64,000 nt of DNA from an uncultured Acidobacteriota bacterium (lineage in GTDB: Bacteria; Acidobacteriota; Terriglobia; 20CM-2-55-15): positions 9,678-73,677 of the forward strand of contig CAWIJI010000011.1 of assembly GCA_963836435.1 (NCBI GenBank), given 5' to 3'. The notes under the pieces are model-generated. The model made no database searches. It had not been told where the DNA came from and saw nothing but the letters and a program-made list of their open reading frames with translations. Below, piece by piece: positions 28,809 through 62,130 of the stretch. The stretch's first letter is position 1. Each line of letters begins with the position of its first letter. The translations under genes were made by a program, and so were the position numbers.

Positions 28809-29023
28809 ACAAGACTTTTCTCCTTTATCCGGGGCGCGAACCGCAGAGTGAGGACGTCGTTTTCCAGAGAAGTCTGGCCGCCTGCTGGTTTGCCAGGCCG
28901 GCGTGAAGACCTTCGATCTCAAGACTGGAGCGGCGAAGGGAGCTCTCACCATCCCCACAGCCAACCCCTTTTGCAATGACCTTACCGTGCGGGCCGACGG
29001 GTCGATCTTTGAAAGGGCGCGAG

Positions 29024-29190
29024 CACGCCGGAGGCGTGCTGAGAATTTAGCCCCGGGTTAAGCGAGCGCAACCCGGGGTTGCCGTAACGGAGATGTTTGC
29101 ACCCCGGCAGGGGTGCAGGGATTCCTCGCACACCCCTGCCCTTGCCCTGCCGGGGTGCGAACGACCCTCGTGAGATGAACCCGGGTGTCG
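29024..29190 (+). repeat. MITE-like hairpin repeat family, copy 1 (partial; lacks terminal TIR module)
   Basis: Shares the cacgccggaggcgtg / ccccgggttaagcgagcg..cccgggg / caccccggcaggggtg / gtgagatgaacccgggtgtcg modules with the copies at 34.6, 48.2, 54.1, 58.7 and 60.1 kb. Confidence 0.8.
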
Positions 29191-34434: not shown

Positions 34435-34592
34435 GATGTGCCAAGCGTACCCTGTCCTGCGTACCGGGACAAGAGCAGGAAGAAACTCAGGACCCGCAGT
34501 TCGAGCGGCTGTCTCCTTGCGGCCTCTCGCACCCCTGCCGGGCACGTCTCGAACTTTGCAGGTTTAGCGTCCACCCCGGAGGGGTTCATGCC

Positions 34593-34785
34593 TGGAGTTT
34601 AGATATTTTGCACGCCGGAGGCGTGCTGGGAATTTAGCCCCGGGTTAAGCGAGCGAAGCGAGCGCAACCCGGGGTTACCGTAACGGAGATGTTCGCACCC
34701 CGTGAGATGAACCCCGGGTGTCGCTCGGCTCCACCCGGGGCTACCTTCCTTTCACGCCTCCGGCGTTCAAAATGTCTACCTCCGG
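34593..34785 (+). repeat. MITE-like hairpin repeat family, copy 2 (short variant with both terminal inverted repeats)
   Basis: Left end cctggagtttagatattttgcacgccggaggcgtg. Right end cacgcctccggcgttcaaaatgtctacctccgg is an approximate reverse complement of the left end. Confidence 0.8.
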
Positions 34786-48138: not shown

Positions 48139-48400
48139 CTGGAGTTTAGAAATTTTTGAGTCTGAGCGGGCGCGGAGACACGAGGTTACGTCTCCGGTTT
48201 GCAGGTTCGTCCGCAAGGCGATGGCGACGTTGAAACGTGAGTCTCAAGCACGCCGGAGGCGTGCTGAGAATTTAGCCCCGGGTTAAGCGAGCGAAGCGAG
48301 CGCAACCCGGGGTTGCCGTAACGGAGATGTTCGCACCCCGGCAGGGGTGCAGGGATTCCTCGCACCCCGGCAGGGGTGCGAAGGCCGCTCGTGAGATGAG
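48139..48400 (+). repeat. MITE-like hairpin repeat family, copy 3 (with extra ~100-bp module after the left TIR)
   Basis: ctggagtttagaaattttt ... [100-bp module also present inverted at 60247-60352] ... cacgccggaggcgtgctgagaatttagccccgggttaagcgagcgaagcgagcgcaacccgggg ... gtgagatgag. Confidence 0.8.
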
Positions 48401-54075: not shown

Positions 54076-54104
54076 ATCGTCTCACCACCGCTCCGCGGTC
54101 AAAG

Positions 54105-54331
54105 CACGCCGGAGGCGTGCTGAGAATTTAGCCCCGGGTTAAGCGAGCGAAGCGAGCGCAACCCGGGGTTGCCGTAACGGAGATGTTCGCACCCCGGCAG
54201 GGGTGCAGGGATTCCTCGCACCCCTGCCGGGGTGCGAACGCCCCTCGTGAGATGAACCCCGGGTGTCGCTCGGCTCCACCCGGGGCTACCTTCCTTTCAC
54301 GCCTCCGGCGTGCAAAGTGTCTAAACTCCAG
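54105..54331 (+). repeat. MITE-like hairpin repeat family, copy 4 (full internal hairpin set; right TIR present)
   Basis: From cacgccggaggcgtgctgagaatttagcc... to ...cacgcctccggcgtgcaaagtgtctaaactccag. Flanked by a 13-bp direct repeat ACCGCTCCGCGGT (54087-54099 and 54335-54347). Confidence 0.85.
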
Positions 54332-54411
54332 AGCACCGCTCCGCGGTGCAACAGCCCGTCCAAAGGAGCCGAGTTTCGCGACAGAAACCTACTACGAAAC
54401 GCTCCCCAACC

Positions 54412-57930: not shown

Positions 57931-58040
57931 GATTGGAGGGGAATTGGGGACAGAGAGCCATTAGGCGAGGGCTCAATGTGGAAACTCGATAAAGGTCTCG
58001 GCTAATGGCTCTCTGTCCTCAACTCCCCCAATCTCCCCCC
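57931..58040 (+). repeat. palindromic REP-like element, copy B
   Basis: ggaggggaattggggacagagagccattaggcgag ... ctcggctaatggctctctgtcctcaactcccccaatctcc. Same GGACAGAGAGCCATTAGCC core as copy A. Confidence 0.75.
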
Positions 58041-58602
58041 CGTCATTTCTGCTCCGGCTTTTTGTCCTCGGGATACCAGTACTTCTTGTGAAGGTTTCGC
58101 AGGCGGTGTCGATTCCGCCTCCGGCACTTGAAAGCGCGTCGGCATCTTTGGCGTCAATCGCTTTCACCGCAACCAGGACCGAATCCTGCAGGGCGCGTGC
58201 GAGCTTCGCCCAGTCTCCTCGATCCTGGTTTATCAGCATCTCGATCTGATCGGGTGTGAGTTCGACATTGGGATCCTTGGCCTGTTCGCCGGGTCTCGCG
58301 ACTTTTCTTCCAGGCATCAGGATAAGATTCATGGCCTCGTGCAGTGTGACGGCTTCGTGGCGCATGTTGGCCCACTCCTCGTCGTTCTTGGGCGCCTGCG
58401 TCTCGACTCCCTTCTCCGTGACGGACGTGGAGACGGCGTTCCACAGGCTATCCGCCCTCGGCTCCACCATGGATTGCATGATCTCCCGGATGGTGAACGC
58501 CGGCGCAACGTCAGGCGGTGCATCGGCGGTTTTACTGGCTTCGCAGGCCGCTGCGGCGCACGCGGATATTGCGACGGTGAGAAATAGGAGGAACTTTCGC
58601 AT
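57973..58602 (-). CDS. class II cytochrome c (cytochrome c'-like) lipoprotein; the heme-binding CxxCH is out of frame, so possibly a pseudogene or a sequence error
   Basis: Lipobox LTVAISACA and a four-helix-bundle-like body. The ORF ends ...GGIDTACETFTRSTG.... Inserting one G (acct-g-tcacaag) restores ...TACETCHKKYWYPEDKKPEQK*, the classic C-terminal CxxCH-x2-Y of cytochromes c'. Confidence 0.5.
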   Translation of the reverse strand: MRKFLLFLTVAISACAAAACEASKTADAPPDVAPAFTIREIMQSMVEPRADSLWNAVSTSVTEKGVETQAPKNDEEWANMRHEAVTLHEAMNLILMPGRKVARPGEQAKDPNVELTPDQIEMLINQDRGDWAKLARALQDSVLVAVKAIDAKDADALSSAGGGIDTACETFTRSTGIPRTKSRSRNDGGEIGGVEDREPLAETFIEFPH

Positions 58603-58708
58603 TTAGCCTTCCTTTCATCGGGGCTGAATTAATTACGGGACAGCGCGTAAGCTACTACGAAAAACACGTCCGCAAGAATTGATTTCGCGAGGAATCAAAC
58701 TGCCCCGC

Positions 58709-58942
58709 CTGGAGTTTAGACATTTTTCACGCCGGAGGCGTGAAAGGAATTCAGCCCCGGGTGGAGCCGAGCGACACCCGGGGTTCATCTCACGAGCGGC
58801 TTGCACCCCTGCCGGGGTGCGAGGAATCCCTGCACCTCTGCGGGGCCCTGCCGGGGTGCAACATTCCCGATACGGCAACCCCGGGTTGCGCTCGCTTCGC
58901 TCGCTTAACCCGGGGCTAAATTCTCAGCACGCCTCCGGCGTG
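58709..58942 (-). repeat. MITE-like hairpin repeat family, copy 5a (inverted orientation, left TIR intact)
   Basis: cctggagtttagacatttttcacgccggaggcgtgaaagg...ccccgggtggagccgagcgacacccgggg...cacgcctccggcgtg. Confidence 0.85.
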
Positions 58943-58944
58943 CA

Positions 58945-59008
58945 CTGGAGTTTAGACATTTTGCACGCCGGAGGCGTGAAAGGAAGGAGCCCCGGGTGGA
59001 GCCGAGCG
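58945..59008 (-). repeat. MITE-like repeat copy 5b, left fragment (interrupted by the IS5-family insertion; continues at 60079)
   Basis: ctggagtttagacattttgcacgccggaggcgtgaaaggaaggagccccgggtggagccgagcg. The same sequence is continuous in copy 5a. Confidence 0.8.
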
Positions 59009-60078
59009 GGCTTTGCACATTAATGGATTCTCGAAGCAGATTCGCTGCCACTTGCTGACGCGGTTTTCGCTTCCGTGTTCAAGGTCTACTCCACGGTCTC
59101 TGCCCGTCGTTTTGCTTCCGACCTTCGCGAATCCAAAGAGCGCGGATACATCGACCATGCTCCGCACTTCAATTCCGTTTTGAACTACCTTGAGAATCCC
59201 GACTTGCGCCCGATCCTAATGGAACTGATTGAGGCTTCCGCGATGCCGCTAGAGGCAATCGAAACGGAATTCGCGGCTGACTCCACGGGCTTCAGCACGT
59301 CGCGCTACGAACGATGGTACGACCACAAATACGGCAAGGAATCGTTCAAGCAAGAATGGGTAAAGGTTCACGTCATGGCTGGAGTGAAAACGAACGTGGT
59401 AACTGCCGTGGAGATTCTGGACAAAGATGCAGCCGATTCGCCAGTGCTCCCGACGTTGCTCACGACTACGCAGAAACAGTTCCACGTGGCGGAAGTTTCA
59501 GCCGACAAAGGCTATCTGTCCTACAGGAACGCCAAGGCAATCGAGGATGCAGGCGCAACGCCTTTCATTGCGTTCAAGAAAGACAGCGGACCCGGAAACT
59601 ACCGGAAGGAAGGCGTCGCTAAGACCGCCGCGTGGTCACGGATGTATCACTACTTCCAATTTCGCCGGGAAGAATTCTTGGAGCACTACCACAAGCGGAG
59701 CAACGTCGAGGCAACGTTCTCTATGATGAAGCGGAAGTTTGGTGATTCACTGCGGAGCAAGACAGACGTGGCGATGGTCAACGAAGCCTTGTGTAAGGTG
59801 CTCTGCCATAATATCGTCGTGCTGATTCATGAGATGTTCGAGCTTGGTATTGATCCGATGTTTCTGAATACTCGGAGTGTCAGCTAGAATGCGCCCAACG
59901 CTCAGGAGGCCAAATGTTAGGATTTCGTCCAAACGAAGTGCCATTTATCGTGCTGGCGCTTGCCCTCTTTTTCTTCGCAATTCCATACCTTGCGCGACGG
60001 CAAAAGAAGTAAGACCCTGCACAACGGGAACGTGGCTGCACAACGGGAACTCAATTAATGCTCCCGTTGTGCAAAGCC
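59009..60078 (+). mobile_element. IS5-family insertion sequence (IS903-group-like, 1070 bp) with 9-bp target-site duplication AGCCGAGCG
   Basis: Ends GGCTTTGCACA... and ...TGTGCAAAGCC (11-bp IR). Identical 9-bp AGCCGAGCG at 59000-59008 and 60079-60087. The insertion interrupts the ccccgggtgGAGCCGAGCGacacccgggg hairpin of a MITE copy. Confidence 0.8.
59075..59887 (+). CDS. IS5-family DDE transposase (DDE_Tnp_1)
   Basis: ...EWVKVHVMAGVKTNVVTAVEILDKDAADSPVLPTLL...VSADKGYLSYRNAKAIEDAGATPFIAFKK... GTG start; 270 aa. Confidence 0.8.
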   Translation: MFKVYSTVSARRFASDLRESKERGYIDHAPHFNSVLNYLENPDLRPILMELIEASAMPLEAIETEFAADSTGFSTSRYERWYDHKYGKESFKQEWVKVHVMAGVKTNVVTAVEILDKDAADSPVLPTLLTTTQKQFHVAEVSADKGYLSYRNAKAIEDAGATPFIAFKKDSGPGNYRKEGVAKTAAWSRMYHYFQFRREEFLEHYHKRSNVEATFSMMKRKFGDSLRSKTDVAMVNEALCKVLCHNIVVLIHEMFELGIDPMFLNTRSVS

Positions 60079-60416
60079 AGCCGAGCGACACCCGGGGTTC
60101 ATCTCACGAGCGGCTTGCACCCCGGCAGGGGTGCAAGGAATCCCTGCACCCCTGCCGGGGTGCAACATTCCCGTTACGGTAACCCCGGGTTGCGCTCGCT
60201 CCGCTCGCTTAACCCGGGGCTAAATTCTCACCACGCCTCCGGCGTGCTCAGACTCGCGTTTCAACGTCGCCATCGCCTTGCGGACGAACCTGAAAACCGG
60301 AGACGTAACCTCGTGTTTCCGTTCCCGCTCAGACTCAAGAATGTCCAAACTCCAGAGCACGCCGGAGGCGTGCTGAGAGTTTAGCCCCGGGTGTCGCTCG
60401 GCTCTCCACCCGGGGG
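60079..60416 (-). repeat. MITE-like repeat copy 5b, right part plus nested extra module and a minimal copy
   Basis: 60079-60246 continues the interrupted element (...acacccggggttcatctcacgagcggcttgcacccc...cacgcctccggcgtg). 60247-60352 is the about 100-bp module also seen in copy 3. 60353-60416 is a minimal TIR plus one hairpin unit. Confidence 0.75.
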
Positions 60417-60591
60417 CTGGGAATCGTCCGAACTCCCTTAATTAACCCTTCGGGGTGATGCGTTTCGGAGACCGGCCGTAGAGCGATTTGATCCCAGGTG
60501 TGAACAGGAATTAAGCGCAGGTTCGCGGCGGCTAGCGCATAACCGGTTCAATTCTGATAATCTGTCGCGCATTCTGAGTTCGGGAGAGCCT

Positions 60592-62130
60592 ATGGAAACA
60601 ACACGGCCCATGAATGGTAGCGAGTTTATCGATTCCCTGCGCGATGACAGGGAAGTCTACATCTATGGCGAACGGGTCAAGGATGTGACGACGCATCCGG
60701 CCTTTCGCAACACAGCCCGCATGATTGCCCGGCTCTACGATGCTCTCCACGACCCGAAACACAAAGACAGGCTGTTGCTCCCGACGGATACCGGTAACGG
60801 CGGCTTCACTCATGCCTACTTCAAGGCTCCGAAAACCACAGCCGACCTCATCGCCGGACGCGACGCCATCGCCGAATGGGCGCGCATCGTCTACGGATGG
60901 GTCGGGCGCTCGCCGGACTACAAGGCGTCGTTTCTGGCTACGCTCGGCGCGAACGCGGAGTTCTACGCGCCGTATCAGGAAAACGCCAGGCGCTGGTACA
61001 AGTACAGCCAGGAGCGCGTGGCGTACGTCAACCATGCGATCATCCATCCGCCAGTGGACCGTGACAAGCCGCCGAACGAAGTGGCCGATATTTGCTGTCA
61101 TGTCGAGAAGGAAACCGATAAGGGGCTGATCATCTCCGGAGCAAAGGTTGTCGCGACCGGTTCCGTGCTCACGAACTTCACCTTCGTTGCCCATCACGGC
61201 CTGATCCCGGTTCAGGACAAGAAGTTTGCCGTGGTTTTCATCGTGCCGTCGAATGCCAAGGGAGTGAAGTTCCTGTGCCGCCCGTCGTACGAGATGACAT
61301 CCACGGTGATGGGCAGCCCGTTTGACTATCCCCTCTCGAGCCGGCTCGACGAGAACGACGCGATTTTCATCATGGACAACGTGATGGTCCCCTGGGAAAA
61401 CGTGTTTGTGTATGCCGATATCGAGAAAGCCAATAATTTCTTCCCGCGCACTGGTTTCCTGCAGCGGTTCGTCGTGCATGGGTGCACGCGCCTGGCGGTT
61501 AAGCTGGACTTCATCGCGGGATTGCTCCTGAAGGCTGTGGAAGCGGCGGGTTCCAAGGATTTCCGCGGCGTGCAGGCCAATGTCGGCGAAGTGATTGCGT
61601 GGCGCAATCTCTTCTGGGGATTGTCGGACGCCATGGTGCGCGACCCGCGTCCGTGGATCGGCGACTACATCCTTCCCAACATGGAACCGGGCAGCGCGTA
61701 CCACGTGATCGCTACAATTGCGTATTCGAAAGTTAAATACATCATCGAGCAGACCGTTGCCTCGGGCTTGATTTATCTCAATTCGCACGCACTCGACTTC
61801 AAGAATGAGGATATCCGGCCGTATATGGATCGCTACATGCGCGGCTCTAACGGCTACAAGGCCGAGGATCGCGTCAAGCTGATGAAGCTGCTGTGGGATA
61901 CTCTGGGCACGGAGTTCGGCGGCCGGCACGAACTCTACGAGATCAATTACGCGGGCTCGACAGAAGAGATTCGCCGCTACTGCCTGTTCGGCGCGCAGGC
62001 CTCCGGAGCCGCCGACCGCATGAAGGGATTCGCCGAGCAATGCATGGCCGAATACGATCTCGACGGGTGGCGTGTGCCGGATTTGACGGATCCTGGTGAA
62101 TTGAGCTATCACGCAAAAAAGAGGAAGTGA
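60592..62130 (+). CDS. hpaB: 4-hydroxyphenylacetate 3-monooxygenase oxygenase component family (HpaB-type two-component flavin monooxygenase)
   Basis: 512 aa, collinear with HpaB-family proteins (N-terminal ...[12 protein letters not shown]..., acyl-CoA-dehydrogenase-like fold regions). Confidence 0.85.

Follow-up and report, generated by a model that had tools for sequence, protein, structure and literature searches.

A probable relic of a larger IS903-like element in a hairpin repeat of an uncultured Acidobacteriota bacterium

A segment of 1,070 bp with a transposase reading frame interrupts a non-coding hairpin repeat in an uncultured Acidobacteriota bacterium, which raises the question of whether it is an intact and mobile insertion sequence (IS) of the IS903 group, as a preliminary description of the locus proposed, or the remnant of something larger. 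The window, that is, the whole stretch of DNA analysed, covers 64 kb of a 602,695-bp contig, and its features lie on the plus strand unless otherwise stated.

The insertion and its target repeat

The inserted segment (59009..60078), read directly, starts with GGCTTTGCACA and ends with TGTGCAAAGCC, which form an 11-bp perfect inverted repeat, and this 11-mer has no exact occurrence elsewhere in the 64 kb. An exact 9-bp target-site duplication, AGCCGAGCG, is present on both sides (59000..59008 and 60079..60087, without strand), and direct reading finds its two copies identical at 9/9 positions. The GC content of the segment is 52.7%, as against 58.6% for the window. Three sites, 34712, 54257 and 58755, have the unbroken hairpin CCCCGGGTGGAGCCGAGCGACACCCGGGG with a single AGCCGAGCG; by chance, none would be expected. 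One of these copies is the uninterrupted hairpin at 58755-58783 in copy 5a (58709..58943), the intact neighbour of the interrupted repeat. By alignment to 5a, the interrupted copy 5b consists of a left part that ends in the left duplication (58945..59008) and a right part (60079..60247). Joining 58945-59008 to 60088-60247 yields a contiguous repeat copy that aligns end to end with 5a at 91% overall identity and in which the hairpin is restored exactly. The locus is, therefore, a real insertion with a clean 9-bp duplication, and because the element splits an existing repeat copy, the repeat was present before it, as had been claimed. Moreover, an assembled Logan contig of run ERR11718635 (L040, 1,151 bp) runs through both junctions and carries them at 100% identity, so an artefact in the assembly of a single data set is excluded.

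The host repeat is a non-coding unit of about 235 bp built of GC-rich hairpins, and it occurs in both orientations, with at least six copies or part-copies in the 64 kb (29023, 34590, 48248, 54104, 58707, 58945/60079 and 60357). It was initially labelled a MITE, and in being short, non-coding, multi-copy and bounded by inverted 16-nt hairpin modules (GCACGCCGGAGGCGTG / CACGCCTCCGGCGTGC) it resembles one, as it resembles REP/BIME-like intergenic repeats. Its copies, however, form a modular array of variable content and differ by whole modules; no consistent target duplications flank the copies in the window, and the 14-nt repeat that flanks the copy at 54104-54331 is itself another hairpin module. 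Nor did the window reveal a cognate transposase, and an Rfam scan of 58000-61000 returned nothing above the gathering score. The MITE label is, therefore, unproven. A promoter scan found no match.

As for the choice of target, the element inserted in the 11-nt loop of a hairpin with a 9-bp stem, where the usual staggered 9-bp cut left AGCCGAGCG on both sides. At the window site, 9/10 flanking positions are complementary. A preference of the whole clade for hairpin loops or palindromes was considered and rejected, with a mean of 3.4 complementary flank positions over 18 sites against 2.5 expected. The hint for such targeting had come from the window site and from sites of the form GCCAC…GTGGC, and several apparent stems are the ends of neighbouring elements. 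An empty insertion site was also sought; relatives with the hpaB-like gene that neighbours the insertion share only that gene (about 80% nucleotide identity), and their flanks are not syntenic.

A truncated transposase between unequal ends

The remnant of the transposase gene (59042..59887) is 82% identical to residues 136-411 of a 415-aa homologue, P0001. Its frame is open from 59024 for 287 codons, and the first start codon, a GTG at 59075 with no Shine-Dalgarno sequence before it, gives the 270-aa product that gene callers predict. As the preliminary description had it, a DDE_Tnp_1 domain is encoded (PF01609, E 8e-23). The catalytic residues are intact (D at 59279-81, D at 59504-06 and E at 59708-10), along with the YxxRxxxExxxxxxK signature, and D69, D144 and E212 of the 270-aa frame, as well as YHKRSNVEATFSMMKRK, align with the motifs of IS903B. 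With this domain, triad and Y-(2)-R-(3)-E-(6)-K spacing, and with terminal inverted repeats and a target duplication of fixed length, the element has the features of the IS5 family. None of 108 sites that are at least 95% conserved is changed in it, where 103 full-length homologues average 1.8 changes. However, residues 1-135 are absent, and the close homologues are all 405-425 aa long with an N-terminal SWIM zinc finger. The window frame lacks both the SWIM domain and the motif region around helix 99-121, and the lost part includes the stretch that aligns to positions 2-48 of the NCBIfam model NF033579. This is the best model for the window frame (117.8 bits, below the cut-off of 140), which covers positions 49-288 of its 289. 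The element, therefore, does not have the complete transposase gene of an autonomous IS.

The left end is equally reduced. Only the 11 nt of the terminal inverted repeat GGCTTTGCACA (59009..59019) pair with the right end; in the closest relatives the left end continues …ACGGGAGGCTCCTGCACAACAGGAG, which the window element lacks. The next 22 nt, TTAATGGATTCTCGAAGCAGAT (59020..59041), have no counterpart in any relative and mark the deletion junction; 12 nt in from the left end, at 59021-59023, is an in-frame stop, TAA, and an out-of-frame ATG is found at 59023. The sequence TGCACAACGGGA has three copies at the right end and none at the left. Subterminal repeats occur at both ends in 17/17 relatives, whereas the left end of the window element has none beyond its 11-nt tip, so that the full terminal and subterminal set of an autonomous IS is wanting. 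Positions 35-858 and 1009-1070 of the element match positions 1575-2398 and 2396-2457 of the L041 element, one of the closest relatives, with no other matches between the two. Judged from this comparison, an internal deletion of roughly 1.4-1.5 kb has taken not only the cargo but also the subterminal repeats of the left end and the first 135 or so codons of the transposase. The IS903-like length is, therefore, a result of this deletion, a coincidence and not a family hallmark.

At its other end the element is better preserved. A 153-bp segment bracketed by CTG/CTG (59867..60019), absent from the closest relatives L041 and L043, splits the ancestral transposase C-terminus between …DPMFL and HNGNVAAQRELN with its stop, and the window frame ends instead in six novel codons (NTRSVS) before its own stop. 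The segment is homologous to L047:4354-4497 (74% nucleotide identity, E 6e-21) and carries a small ORF of 32 aa, MLGFRPNEVPFIVLALALFFFAIPYLARRQKK (59914..60012), with a Shine-Dalgarno sequence, AGGAGG, at 59904-59909. L047 has conserved the peptide, its Shine-Dalgarno sequence and the sequence before it, with mostly synonymous differences. A look-up of the small ORF found no record; the product is a putative membrane peptide, a candidate passenger or toxin. Next to it are two direct subterminal repeats CTGCACAACGGGAAC (60017..60050, at 60017-31 and 60036-50), which are also the leftover ancestral C-terminal codons LHNGNVAAQRELN and stop. The right terminal inverted repeat, CTCCCGTTGTGCAAAGCC (60061..60078, minus strand), pairs with the left end over its terminal 11 nt (60068-60078). 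The last 62 bp (60017-60078), this repeat included, are 98% identical to L041, and the right end …GTGCAAAGCC is conserved in relatives down to 45% amino acid identity, including those in archaeal MAGs. Further copies would be expected to show the end pair GGCTTTGCAC / GTGCAAAGCC.

The copy appears to stand alone. The window holds a single transposase match. In a search of 5.8 billion protein clusters the highest amino acid identity is 82%, and genomes and metagenomes reach at most 68% and 79%; no sibling or master copy above 82% was found in the protein, genome and metagenome collections or in the Logan assembly of ERR11718635. A look-up of the exact protein led back to this locus alone. The cluster members are short pieces from the C-terminus of other elements, cut by contig ends, and no orthologue of the truncated form was found, which leaves a single copy in a single lineage. 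The search for further copies of the 1,070-bp unit, proposed earlier as a check, thus came back empty, and of the suggestion that the element is mobile in this lineage only a past event stands; this copy has no complete transposase, and neither a second copy nor a sign of current movement appears in the 64 kb or the collections searched. Metagenome assemblies often lack multicopy elements, and since 64 kb of the 602,695-bp contig were covered, an unseen master copy is conceivable. The sign of a full-length master would be GGCTTTGCACAACGGGAGG… joined to other sequence.

Relatives of the element and the IS903 group

Ends of the form GGCTTTG…CAAAGCC, with inverted repeats of 9-18 bp, and exact 9-bp duplications characterise seventeen relatives on separate contigs, so that the ends and the duplication recur at other members of the clade. 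These relatives measure 1,806-3,470 bp and encode transposases of 400-425 aa (SWIM and DDE), and the stretch from the left end to the transposase gene holds cargo ORFs of 96-344 aa. When the 9 nt that follow the right end served as the anchor of a search, the true left ends in the closest relatives proved to lie about 1.2 kb upstream of the ATG of the transposase gene. Left ends only 54-84 bp upstream of the ATG (GGCTTTGTAAC in L041 and GGGTTTGCACC in L043), which would give elements of about 1.35 kb, were rejected, as they have no duplications and the true ends lie about 1.1 kb beyond; a generic 14-mer inverted-repeat search around homologues mostly returned chance pairs. A full-length member begins with a left end bearing three transposase-site repeats; variable cargo of about 1 kb follows, then a transposase (about 410 aa) with an N-terminal SWIM domain and a DDE_Tnp_1 core, and last the right end, with which the stop codon overlaps. 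For the 245-aa cargo protein of the closest relatives, neither Pfam nor PDB gave a match. In P0001, the SWIM domain (PF04434, 24.8 bits) lies within an N-terminal extension of about 97 aa. Literature searches found no paper linking SWIM with IS5 transposases. The clade comprises about 1,050 clusters at 50% identity (E<=1e-30) in Acidobacteriota, Planctomycetota and several archaeal phyla; it is abundant in soil and peat, IS903-like and poorly catalogued. The source annotation calls the relatives only "transposase", which fits their sub-threshold NF033579 scores.

The proposed tie to the IS903 group holds in part, although by the curated model score the element is not a member. The 9-bp target duplication of this group is listed in Table 1 of PMC2577343, and both the window element and its relatives have one; the terminus of IS903 reads GGCTTTGTTGAATA (PMC8477213), and with GGCTTTGCACA the window element has the same 5'-GGC (GGCTTTG…) beginning. 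In plasmid Rts1, IS903B is 1,057 bp long, with one ORF, and flanked by a 9-bp duplication, CGTTGTGTC. IS903 and IS903B, the window element and its clade also have in common the DDE triad, the Y-R-E-K signature and NF033579 as the best model. P0001 and IS903B align (22% identity, E 3e-11) across both the W..YN.A..N.G motif of the N-terminus and the DDE core. However, IS903B scores 356 bits against NF033579, whereas the clade scores 102-118 bits, below 140 (P0001 118.5 and a second homologue, P0107, 101.8; the next best model, IS1182, reaches 56 bits). Likewise, IS903B matches the N-terminal domain PF13737 at E 3e-40, and P0001 shows no PF13737 and has SWIM in its place, the window frame lacking the N-terminus altogether. 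Size does not serve as a hallmark either, contrary to what was first supposed for the length of about 1.05 kb. Elements of the IS903 group, in the ISfinder range, are about 0.95-1.15 kb long with one ORF of about 300 aa; the relatives with the same ends as the window element are 1.8-3.5 kb long with 405-425-aa transposases, cargo and three-fold subterminal repeats, and the window copy is short by deletion. On sequence comparison, the element is best described as IS5-type, with IS903 as the nearest named group and its clade as a probable sister to that group.

Other known systems are more distant. Among 72,556 plasmids, the best annotated matches of the full-length homologue are elements of the ISVa2/ISPko1 type, annotated as transposases of the "IS5 family" or the "IS5-like element ISVa2/ISPko1 family", and at identities of only 24-28% none is close. 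No solved structure matches P0001 by sequence. Its predicted fold (pLDDT 80) best matches the Tn5 transposase (PDB 1MUH; E 8.7e-4, probability 1.0, TM 0.40), which belongs to another family, IS4, at 10% sequence identity and without a SWIM domain. IS with passenger genes have been termed transporter IS (tIS; PMC9330008), and the relatives, with passenger ORFs inside their inverted repeats, as well as the window copy with its conserved 32-aa ORF, conform to this description. The window element also resembles non-autonomous derivatives and MITEs in having no complete transposase; with its 1,070 bp and 270-aa ORF it exceeds the usual size of a MITE and, as a single copy, shows no sign of amplification.

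Origin of the short copy and its meaning

Taken together, the element is very probably the crippled, single-copy relic of a larger (1.8-3.5 kb) IS903-like element, inserted in the loop of a repeat hairpin with a 9-bp duplication. That the hairpin repeats came before the element is sound as a relative date; that the internal deletion came last, in place and after a full-length insertion, we infer with somewhat better than even confidence. The left subterminal repeats, the cargo and codons 1 to about 135 have been lost. What remains is 11 nt of the left end, an undamaged catalytic core, the small ORF for the membrane peptide and the right end in full. The 9/9 duplication and the absence of changes at the 108 conserved sites indicate recent events. 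An element that was intact, autonomous, about 1.05 kb long and still moving in the lineage is hardly credible, for all that the duplication, the GGC termini, the DDE_Tnp_1 frame, the IS903-type best model and a length close to that of IS903B agree with it: the model score lies below the cut-off, every close homologue has the missing residues 1-135, a stop codon stands 12 nt in from the left end, relatives that have these ends measure 1.8-3.5 kb, the left subterminal repeats are gone, and no second copy appears in the window or the collections searched. The N-terminal region of the IS903 transposase was reportedly connected with end binding by Tavakoli et al. in 1997; by analogy, the 135 residues lost here may be needed for end binding in this clade, and the remnant presumably no longer moves by itself.

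It is a lesser though real possibility that the copy was already short when it arrived, as a MITE-like non-autonomous unit moved in trans by a full-length copy in the same cell that has since been lost or is absent from the assembly. In its favour, the two termini are present along with a perfect duplication, the ORF is undecayed, and the clade does make short derivatives (366 bp at L047:3597-3962 and 1,806 bp in L037). The first 15 nt of the window left end equal the left end of the relative L066, and in some relatives as few as 9-12 nt are common to the two ends; the window left end could, therefore, be a usable natural variant, which favours transposition as a short unit and speaks against deletion in place. 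Deletion in place would likewise conflict with any full-length relative whose natural left end is GGCTTTGCACATTAATGGATTCTCG…. On the other side, no sibling or master above 82% turned up in the collections searched, the Logan assembly of the same run included; the two subterminal repeats that all 17 relatives have are missing from the left end; and the transposase of IS903 prefers to act in cis. Much less likely is a transposition in which the true right end was paired with an end-like site in the element's own gene (codons 117-121, H-G-L-C-S; GGTCTTTGCAGCAACG in L041), so that only the 3' two-thirds moved. In L041, GGTCTTTGCAGCAACG does contain the end GGCTTTGCACAACG in order but for two 1-nt insertions, and it lies 54 nt upstream of the start of window homology, where the window distance is 33 nt, an in-frame difference of 21 nt. 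This route presumes that parental codons 117-135 read GGCTTTGCACATTAATGG…. The 22 intervening nt, however, are not similar to that region in any relative, the internal match is poorer in L043, the window left end agrees 11/11 with the consensus of true ends, above any internal site, and an extra 21-nt loss with sequence turnover would be required. Retention of the truncated ORF by selection, for instance because it inhibits related transposases in a trans-dominant manner or serves as a domesticated nuclease, is also quite improbable. That the truncated ORF has not decayed could reflect such selection, given the unchanged conserved sites and an open frame of 287 codons from which gene callers predict a product; against it stand the missing Shine-Dalgarno sequence before the GTG, the single copy in a single lineage with no truncated orthologues (short homologues being contig-end fragments) and the fact that a recent deletion explains the lack of decay equally well.

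For annotation, the 270-aa "transposase" is a fragment, and its IS903-like element length is coincidental. A broader and rather doubtful picture would have a large uncatalogued clade of SWIM-zinc-finger DDE elements, sister to IS903, with 9-bp duplications, three-fold subterminal repeats and routine cargo, in which one sub-lineage carries a selected, perhaps toxin-like membrane peptide of 32-36 aa and in which the truncated ORF may have been retained for a function, for example the inhibition of incoming relatives. The element leaves the understanding of DDE transposition unchanged. The clade to which it belongs is missed by the curated IS903 model, and the comparison, in defining its ends, 9-bp duplication, subterminal repeats and cargo layout, would aid the annotation of IS in Acidobacteriota and archaeal MAGs.

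Insertion into a hairpin repeat

On the forward strand, the 9-mer AGCCGAGCG is present twice, at 59000-59008 and 60079-60087, and the two copies are separated by a 1,070-bp element (59009-60078) which starts with GGCTTTGCACA and ends with TGTGCAAAGCC; no further exact occurrence of its terminal 11-mer was found within the window. The 29-nt hairpin CCCCGGGTGGAGCCGAGCGACACCCGGGG, the loop of which contains a single AGCCGAGCG, occurs uninterrupted at 34712, 54257 and 58755 (chance expectation 0). Removal of the segment and one 9-mer rebuilds a repeat copy (5b) whose alignment with the neighbouring copy 5a (58709-58943) spans its full length, and in the independent Logan assembly of run ERR11718635, a 1,151-bp contig is identical across both junctions. 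Since the junctions, the restored copy and the Logan contig agree, the insertion, its inverted repeats and the clean 9-bp target duplication are all real, as the preliminary description had proposed, and its relative timing also holds, in that the hairpin repeat predates the element. Moreover, several substitutions and a 10-nt indel distinguish the tandem repeat copies, but the two 9-mers are identical, so the insertion is younger than the divergence of both copies. The target 9 bp are centred in a loop of 11 nt on a 9-bp stem, and palindromic flanks are preferred by IS903 (PMC2577343, Table 1). Flank complementarity barely exceeds chance across 18 dated sites of the clade described below; therefore, the loop position is treated as incidental, and hairpin-loop or palindrome targeting by the clade was dropped.

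The interrupted repeat is modular and GC-rich, with copies or part-copies at 29023-29190, 34590-34778, 48248-48399, 54104-54331, 58707-58944 (5a), 58945-59008 plus 60079-60247 (5b) and 60357-60415. Its units reach ~235 bp, occur in both orientations and are each ~66-70% self-complementary, and the modules missing differ from copy to copy. No target duplications were found around the repeat copies, Rfam gave no match in 58000-61000, and a promoter scan of 58600-60650 gave no match. The earlier label "MITE" is reasonable though unproven, and REP/BIME-like is equally apt. The copy at 54104-54331 is bracketed by direct copies of ACCGCGGAGCGGTG (54088-54101 and 54332-54345), itself a small hairpin (CACCGC-GGA-GCGGTG), and this pair may represent either a target duplication of unusual length or simply a further module of the repeat. 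The nearby hpaB-like monooxygenase gene (60552-62130) shares ~80% nucleotide identity with genes on many soil metagenome contigs, and the gene order around it is not common to the related loci L126-L137. The gap upstream of this gene is ~20-240 bp in those loci (~170 bp in L126-L131), and in the window it holds ~2 kb of repeats and the element.

The transposase, its clade and the IS903 group

The reading frame of the element is open from 59024, and the first start codon, GTG at 59075, gives a 270-aa product in which DDE_Tnp_1 is detected (E 8e-23). Among NCBIfam models, NF033579 "transpos_IS5_2" scores highest, with 117.8 bits against a cut-off of 140 bits, the match spanning only positions 49-288 of the 289 in the profile, and the IS1182 model is second with 58.5 bits (56 bits for P0001, a 415-aa full-length homologue). 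As a control, the transposase of IS903B from plasmid Rts1, a 1,057-bp element with the 9-bp duplication CGTTGTGTC, reached 356 bits over the whole model, so NF033579 is the IS903-type model, of which the window protein is the nearest but sub-threshold relative. The closest of 7,505 homologues (77-82% identity) are 405-425 aa long and have, besides PF01609, a SWIM zinc finger, PF04434 (residues 44-67 in P0001, 24.8 bits). The window ORF aligns to P0001 residues 136-411 only, everything ahead of residue 136 is absent, there is a TAA stop at 59021-23, and the single ATG close by (59023) is in another frame; the window copy is truncated. The IS903-type profile starts at P0001 residue 98, and the motif W99..Y102-N103.A105-Q106, invariant in 62 homologues, aligns with the IS903B N-terminus. 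The predicted structure of P0001 (pLDDT 80) comprises four parts: residues 1-75 form a small α/β SWIM domain, a disordered linker follows, residues 99-121 make up a long helix, and the last part is a helical plus RNase-H-like core. Its best match among solved structures is Tn5 transposase.

The 9 nt after each right end were searched, and all loci were then scanned for GGCTTTG…CAAAGCC between two copies of the same 9-mer; this recovered 17 relatives, each on its own contig and each with an exact 9-bp duplication. These are 1,806-3,470 bp long (2,457, 2,504 and 2,571 bp in the three closest, L041, L043 and L046), with ~1 kb of variable ORFs from the left end to the transposase gene, the stop codon of which is no more than ~20 bp from the right end. 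At either end, a terminal repeat of 9-18 bp is accompanied by two subterminal copies of its inner part, such as TGCACAACGGGA, TGCCCAATAA and TGCTCATAAAGTC. The right tip GTGCAAAGCC is kept down to 45% protein identity, also in archaeal MAGs. The two closest relatives have in common a passenger protein of 245 aa (L041:894-1631) or 241 aa (L043:376-1101), encoded on the minus strand, opposite to the transposase, for which no Pfam or PDB match was found; differing passenger ORFs are also present in L046, L005, L009, L067 and L068. The clade comprises 1,050 clusters at 50% identity (E<=1e-30), mainly from Terriglobia/Acidobacteriota and also from Planctomycetota and archaea, and its protein is annotated at source as just "transposase".

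Within the clade, L001, L005, L007, L008 and L037 adjoin the end of another same-clade element, the two ends being separated by the 9-bp duplication alone (…CAAAGCC-9 nt-GGCTTTG…), which suggests repeated insertion beside resident copies. A target-like flank, ACnnnCTGT-(G/T)G(C/T)AAAAAAA, is common to L007, L008, L009 and L068. As well, a 366-bp MITE-like derivative with clade ends GGCTTTGCACATAAA / TTTATGTGCAAAGCC is found at L047:3597-3962, directly downstream of the complete element of that locus.

Like IS903, the window element has GGCTTTG ends, uses DDE chemistry and cuts its target with a 9-bp stagger, and the duplication, the ends and the best model support the IS903-group assignment made earlier. 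Unlike that group, its transposase scores below the curated cut-off, its clade has a SWIM N-terminus, and its relatives differ in size and ORF layout and carry cargo, so in these respects the assignment did not stand. The element belongs rather to a sister clade of the IS903 group, with a SWIM N-terminus and cargo. A literature search on SWIM-domain IS5-type transposases found no paper, and the clade is not claimed as undescribed.

Anatomy of the window copy and small hydrophobic ORFs

Compared with L041, the window copy consists of the tip of the left end (element positions 1-11), an unmatched stretch (12-33; 59020-59041), an L041-homologous part (35-858; L041 element 1575-2398, 75% nucleotide identity), a stretch with no counterpart in the closest relatives (859-1008) and a right-end part (1009-1070) that has 98% identity with the final 62 bp of L041. 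From this pattern, ~1.4-1.5 kb is missing, comprising everything of the left end beyond its tip, both subterminal repeats among it, together with the cargo and transposase codons 1 to ~135. The repeat TGCACAACGGGA is found at 60018, 60037 and 60062 (inverted) and is absent from the left end. The window copy is the shortest of the element set, and its resemblance in length to IS903 is a coincidence; a size near 1.05 kb, previously taken as a group hallmark, is the product of deletion, and relatives with the same ends are far longer. In the L041 transposase gene, the coding GGTCTTTGCAGCAACG (L041:2350-2365, codons 117-122) closely resembles the element end GGCTTTGCACAACG, being a possible pseudo-end or else a coincidence.

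The transposases of the closest relatives end in DPMFLHNGNVAAQRELN, while the window protein ends in DPMFL-NTRSVS, followed by 150 bp and then by CTGCACAACGGGAACGTGGCTGCACAACGGGAACTCAATTAA, which encodes LHNGNVAAQRELN and a stop. The extra 153-bp segment (59867-60019) is homologous to L047:4354-4497 (74% nucleotide identity, E 6e-21). Just ahead of the right-end repeats, on the forward strand, it contains a 32-aa hydrophobic ORF, MLGFRPNEVPFIVLALALFFFAIPYLARRQKK (59904-60012 with its Shine-Dalgarno), in which a strong AGGAGG precedes the ATG by a 4-nt gap. The L047 counterpart has 36 aa with mostly synonymous differences, and the peptide, the Shine-Dalgarno and ~45 nt upstream are conserved between the two. 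No such gene is on record in the gene index, and the peptide is a candidate small membrane protein or toxin-like passenger. In addition, a membrane ORF of 64 aa with two helices is located downstream of the transposase stop and ahead of the right end in the complete element of L047 (L047:3307-3573). Since the window and L047 both show them near the right end, small hydrophobic ORFs just inside this end recur as putative cargo in the clade.

State and history of the remnant

An alignment with 103 full-length homologues has 108 positions conserved at 95% or more, and the window ORF (59075-59887) deviates at none of them, the homologues themselves averaging 1.8 deviations with a maximum of 8. Neither the DDE triad nor the Y-R-E-K signature is altered, and the duplication is perfect; thus, either the insertion and the deletion both took place recently, or selection acts on the ORF. 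For a presumed pseudogene, the truncated ORF is unusually clean.

The window holds a single transposase match, and the search for other copies found no sibling or parent, with maximum identities of 82% among 5.8 billion protein clusters (source assembly and same-run Logan assembly included), 68% in species-representative genomes and 79% in JGI metagenomes. The suggestion that the element is mobile in this lineage is therefore borne out for a past insertion and not for the present copy, which is defective and orphan. Most likely, the deletion occurred in place: a full-length element would have inserted, and an internal deletion would then have removed the left subterminal repeats, the cargo and the N-terminal codons. 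This is favoured because no helper copy is detectable, because the left end is without the repeats kept by every relative, and because IS903-type transposases act preferentially in cis. It is possible that the element was already short when transposed, as the two ends of some relatives have no more than 9-12 nt in common and the window left end is identical over its first 15 nt to the left end of the relative L066. The feature is an ordinary, defective, orphan IS remnant, and the interest lies less in the insertion itself than in the definition of the clade and in the small conserved ORF.
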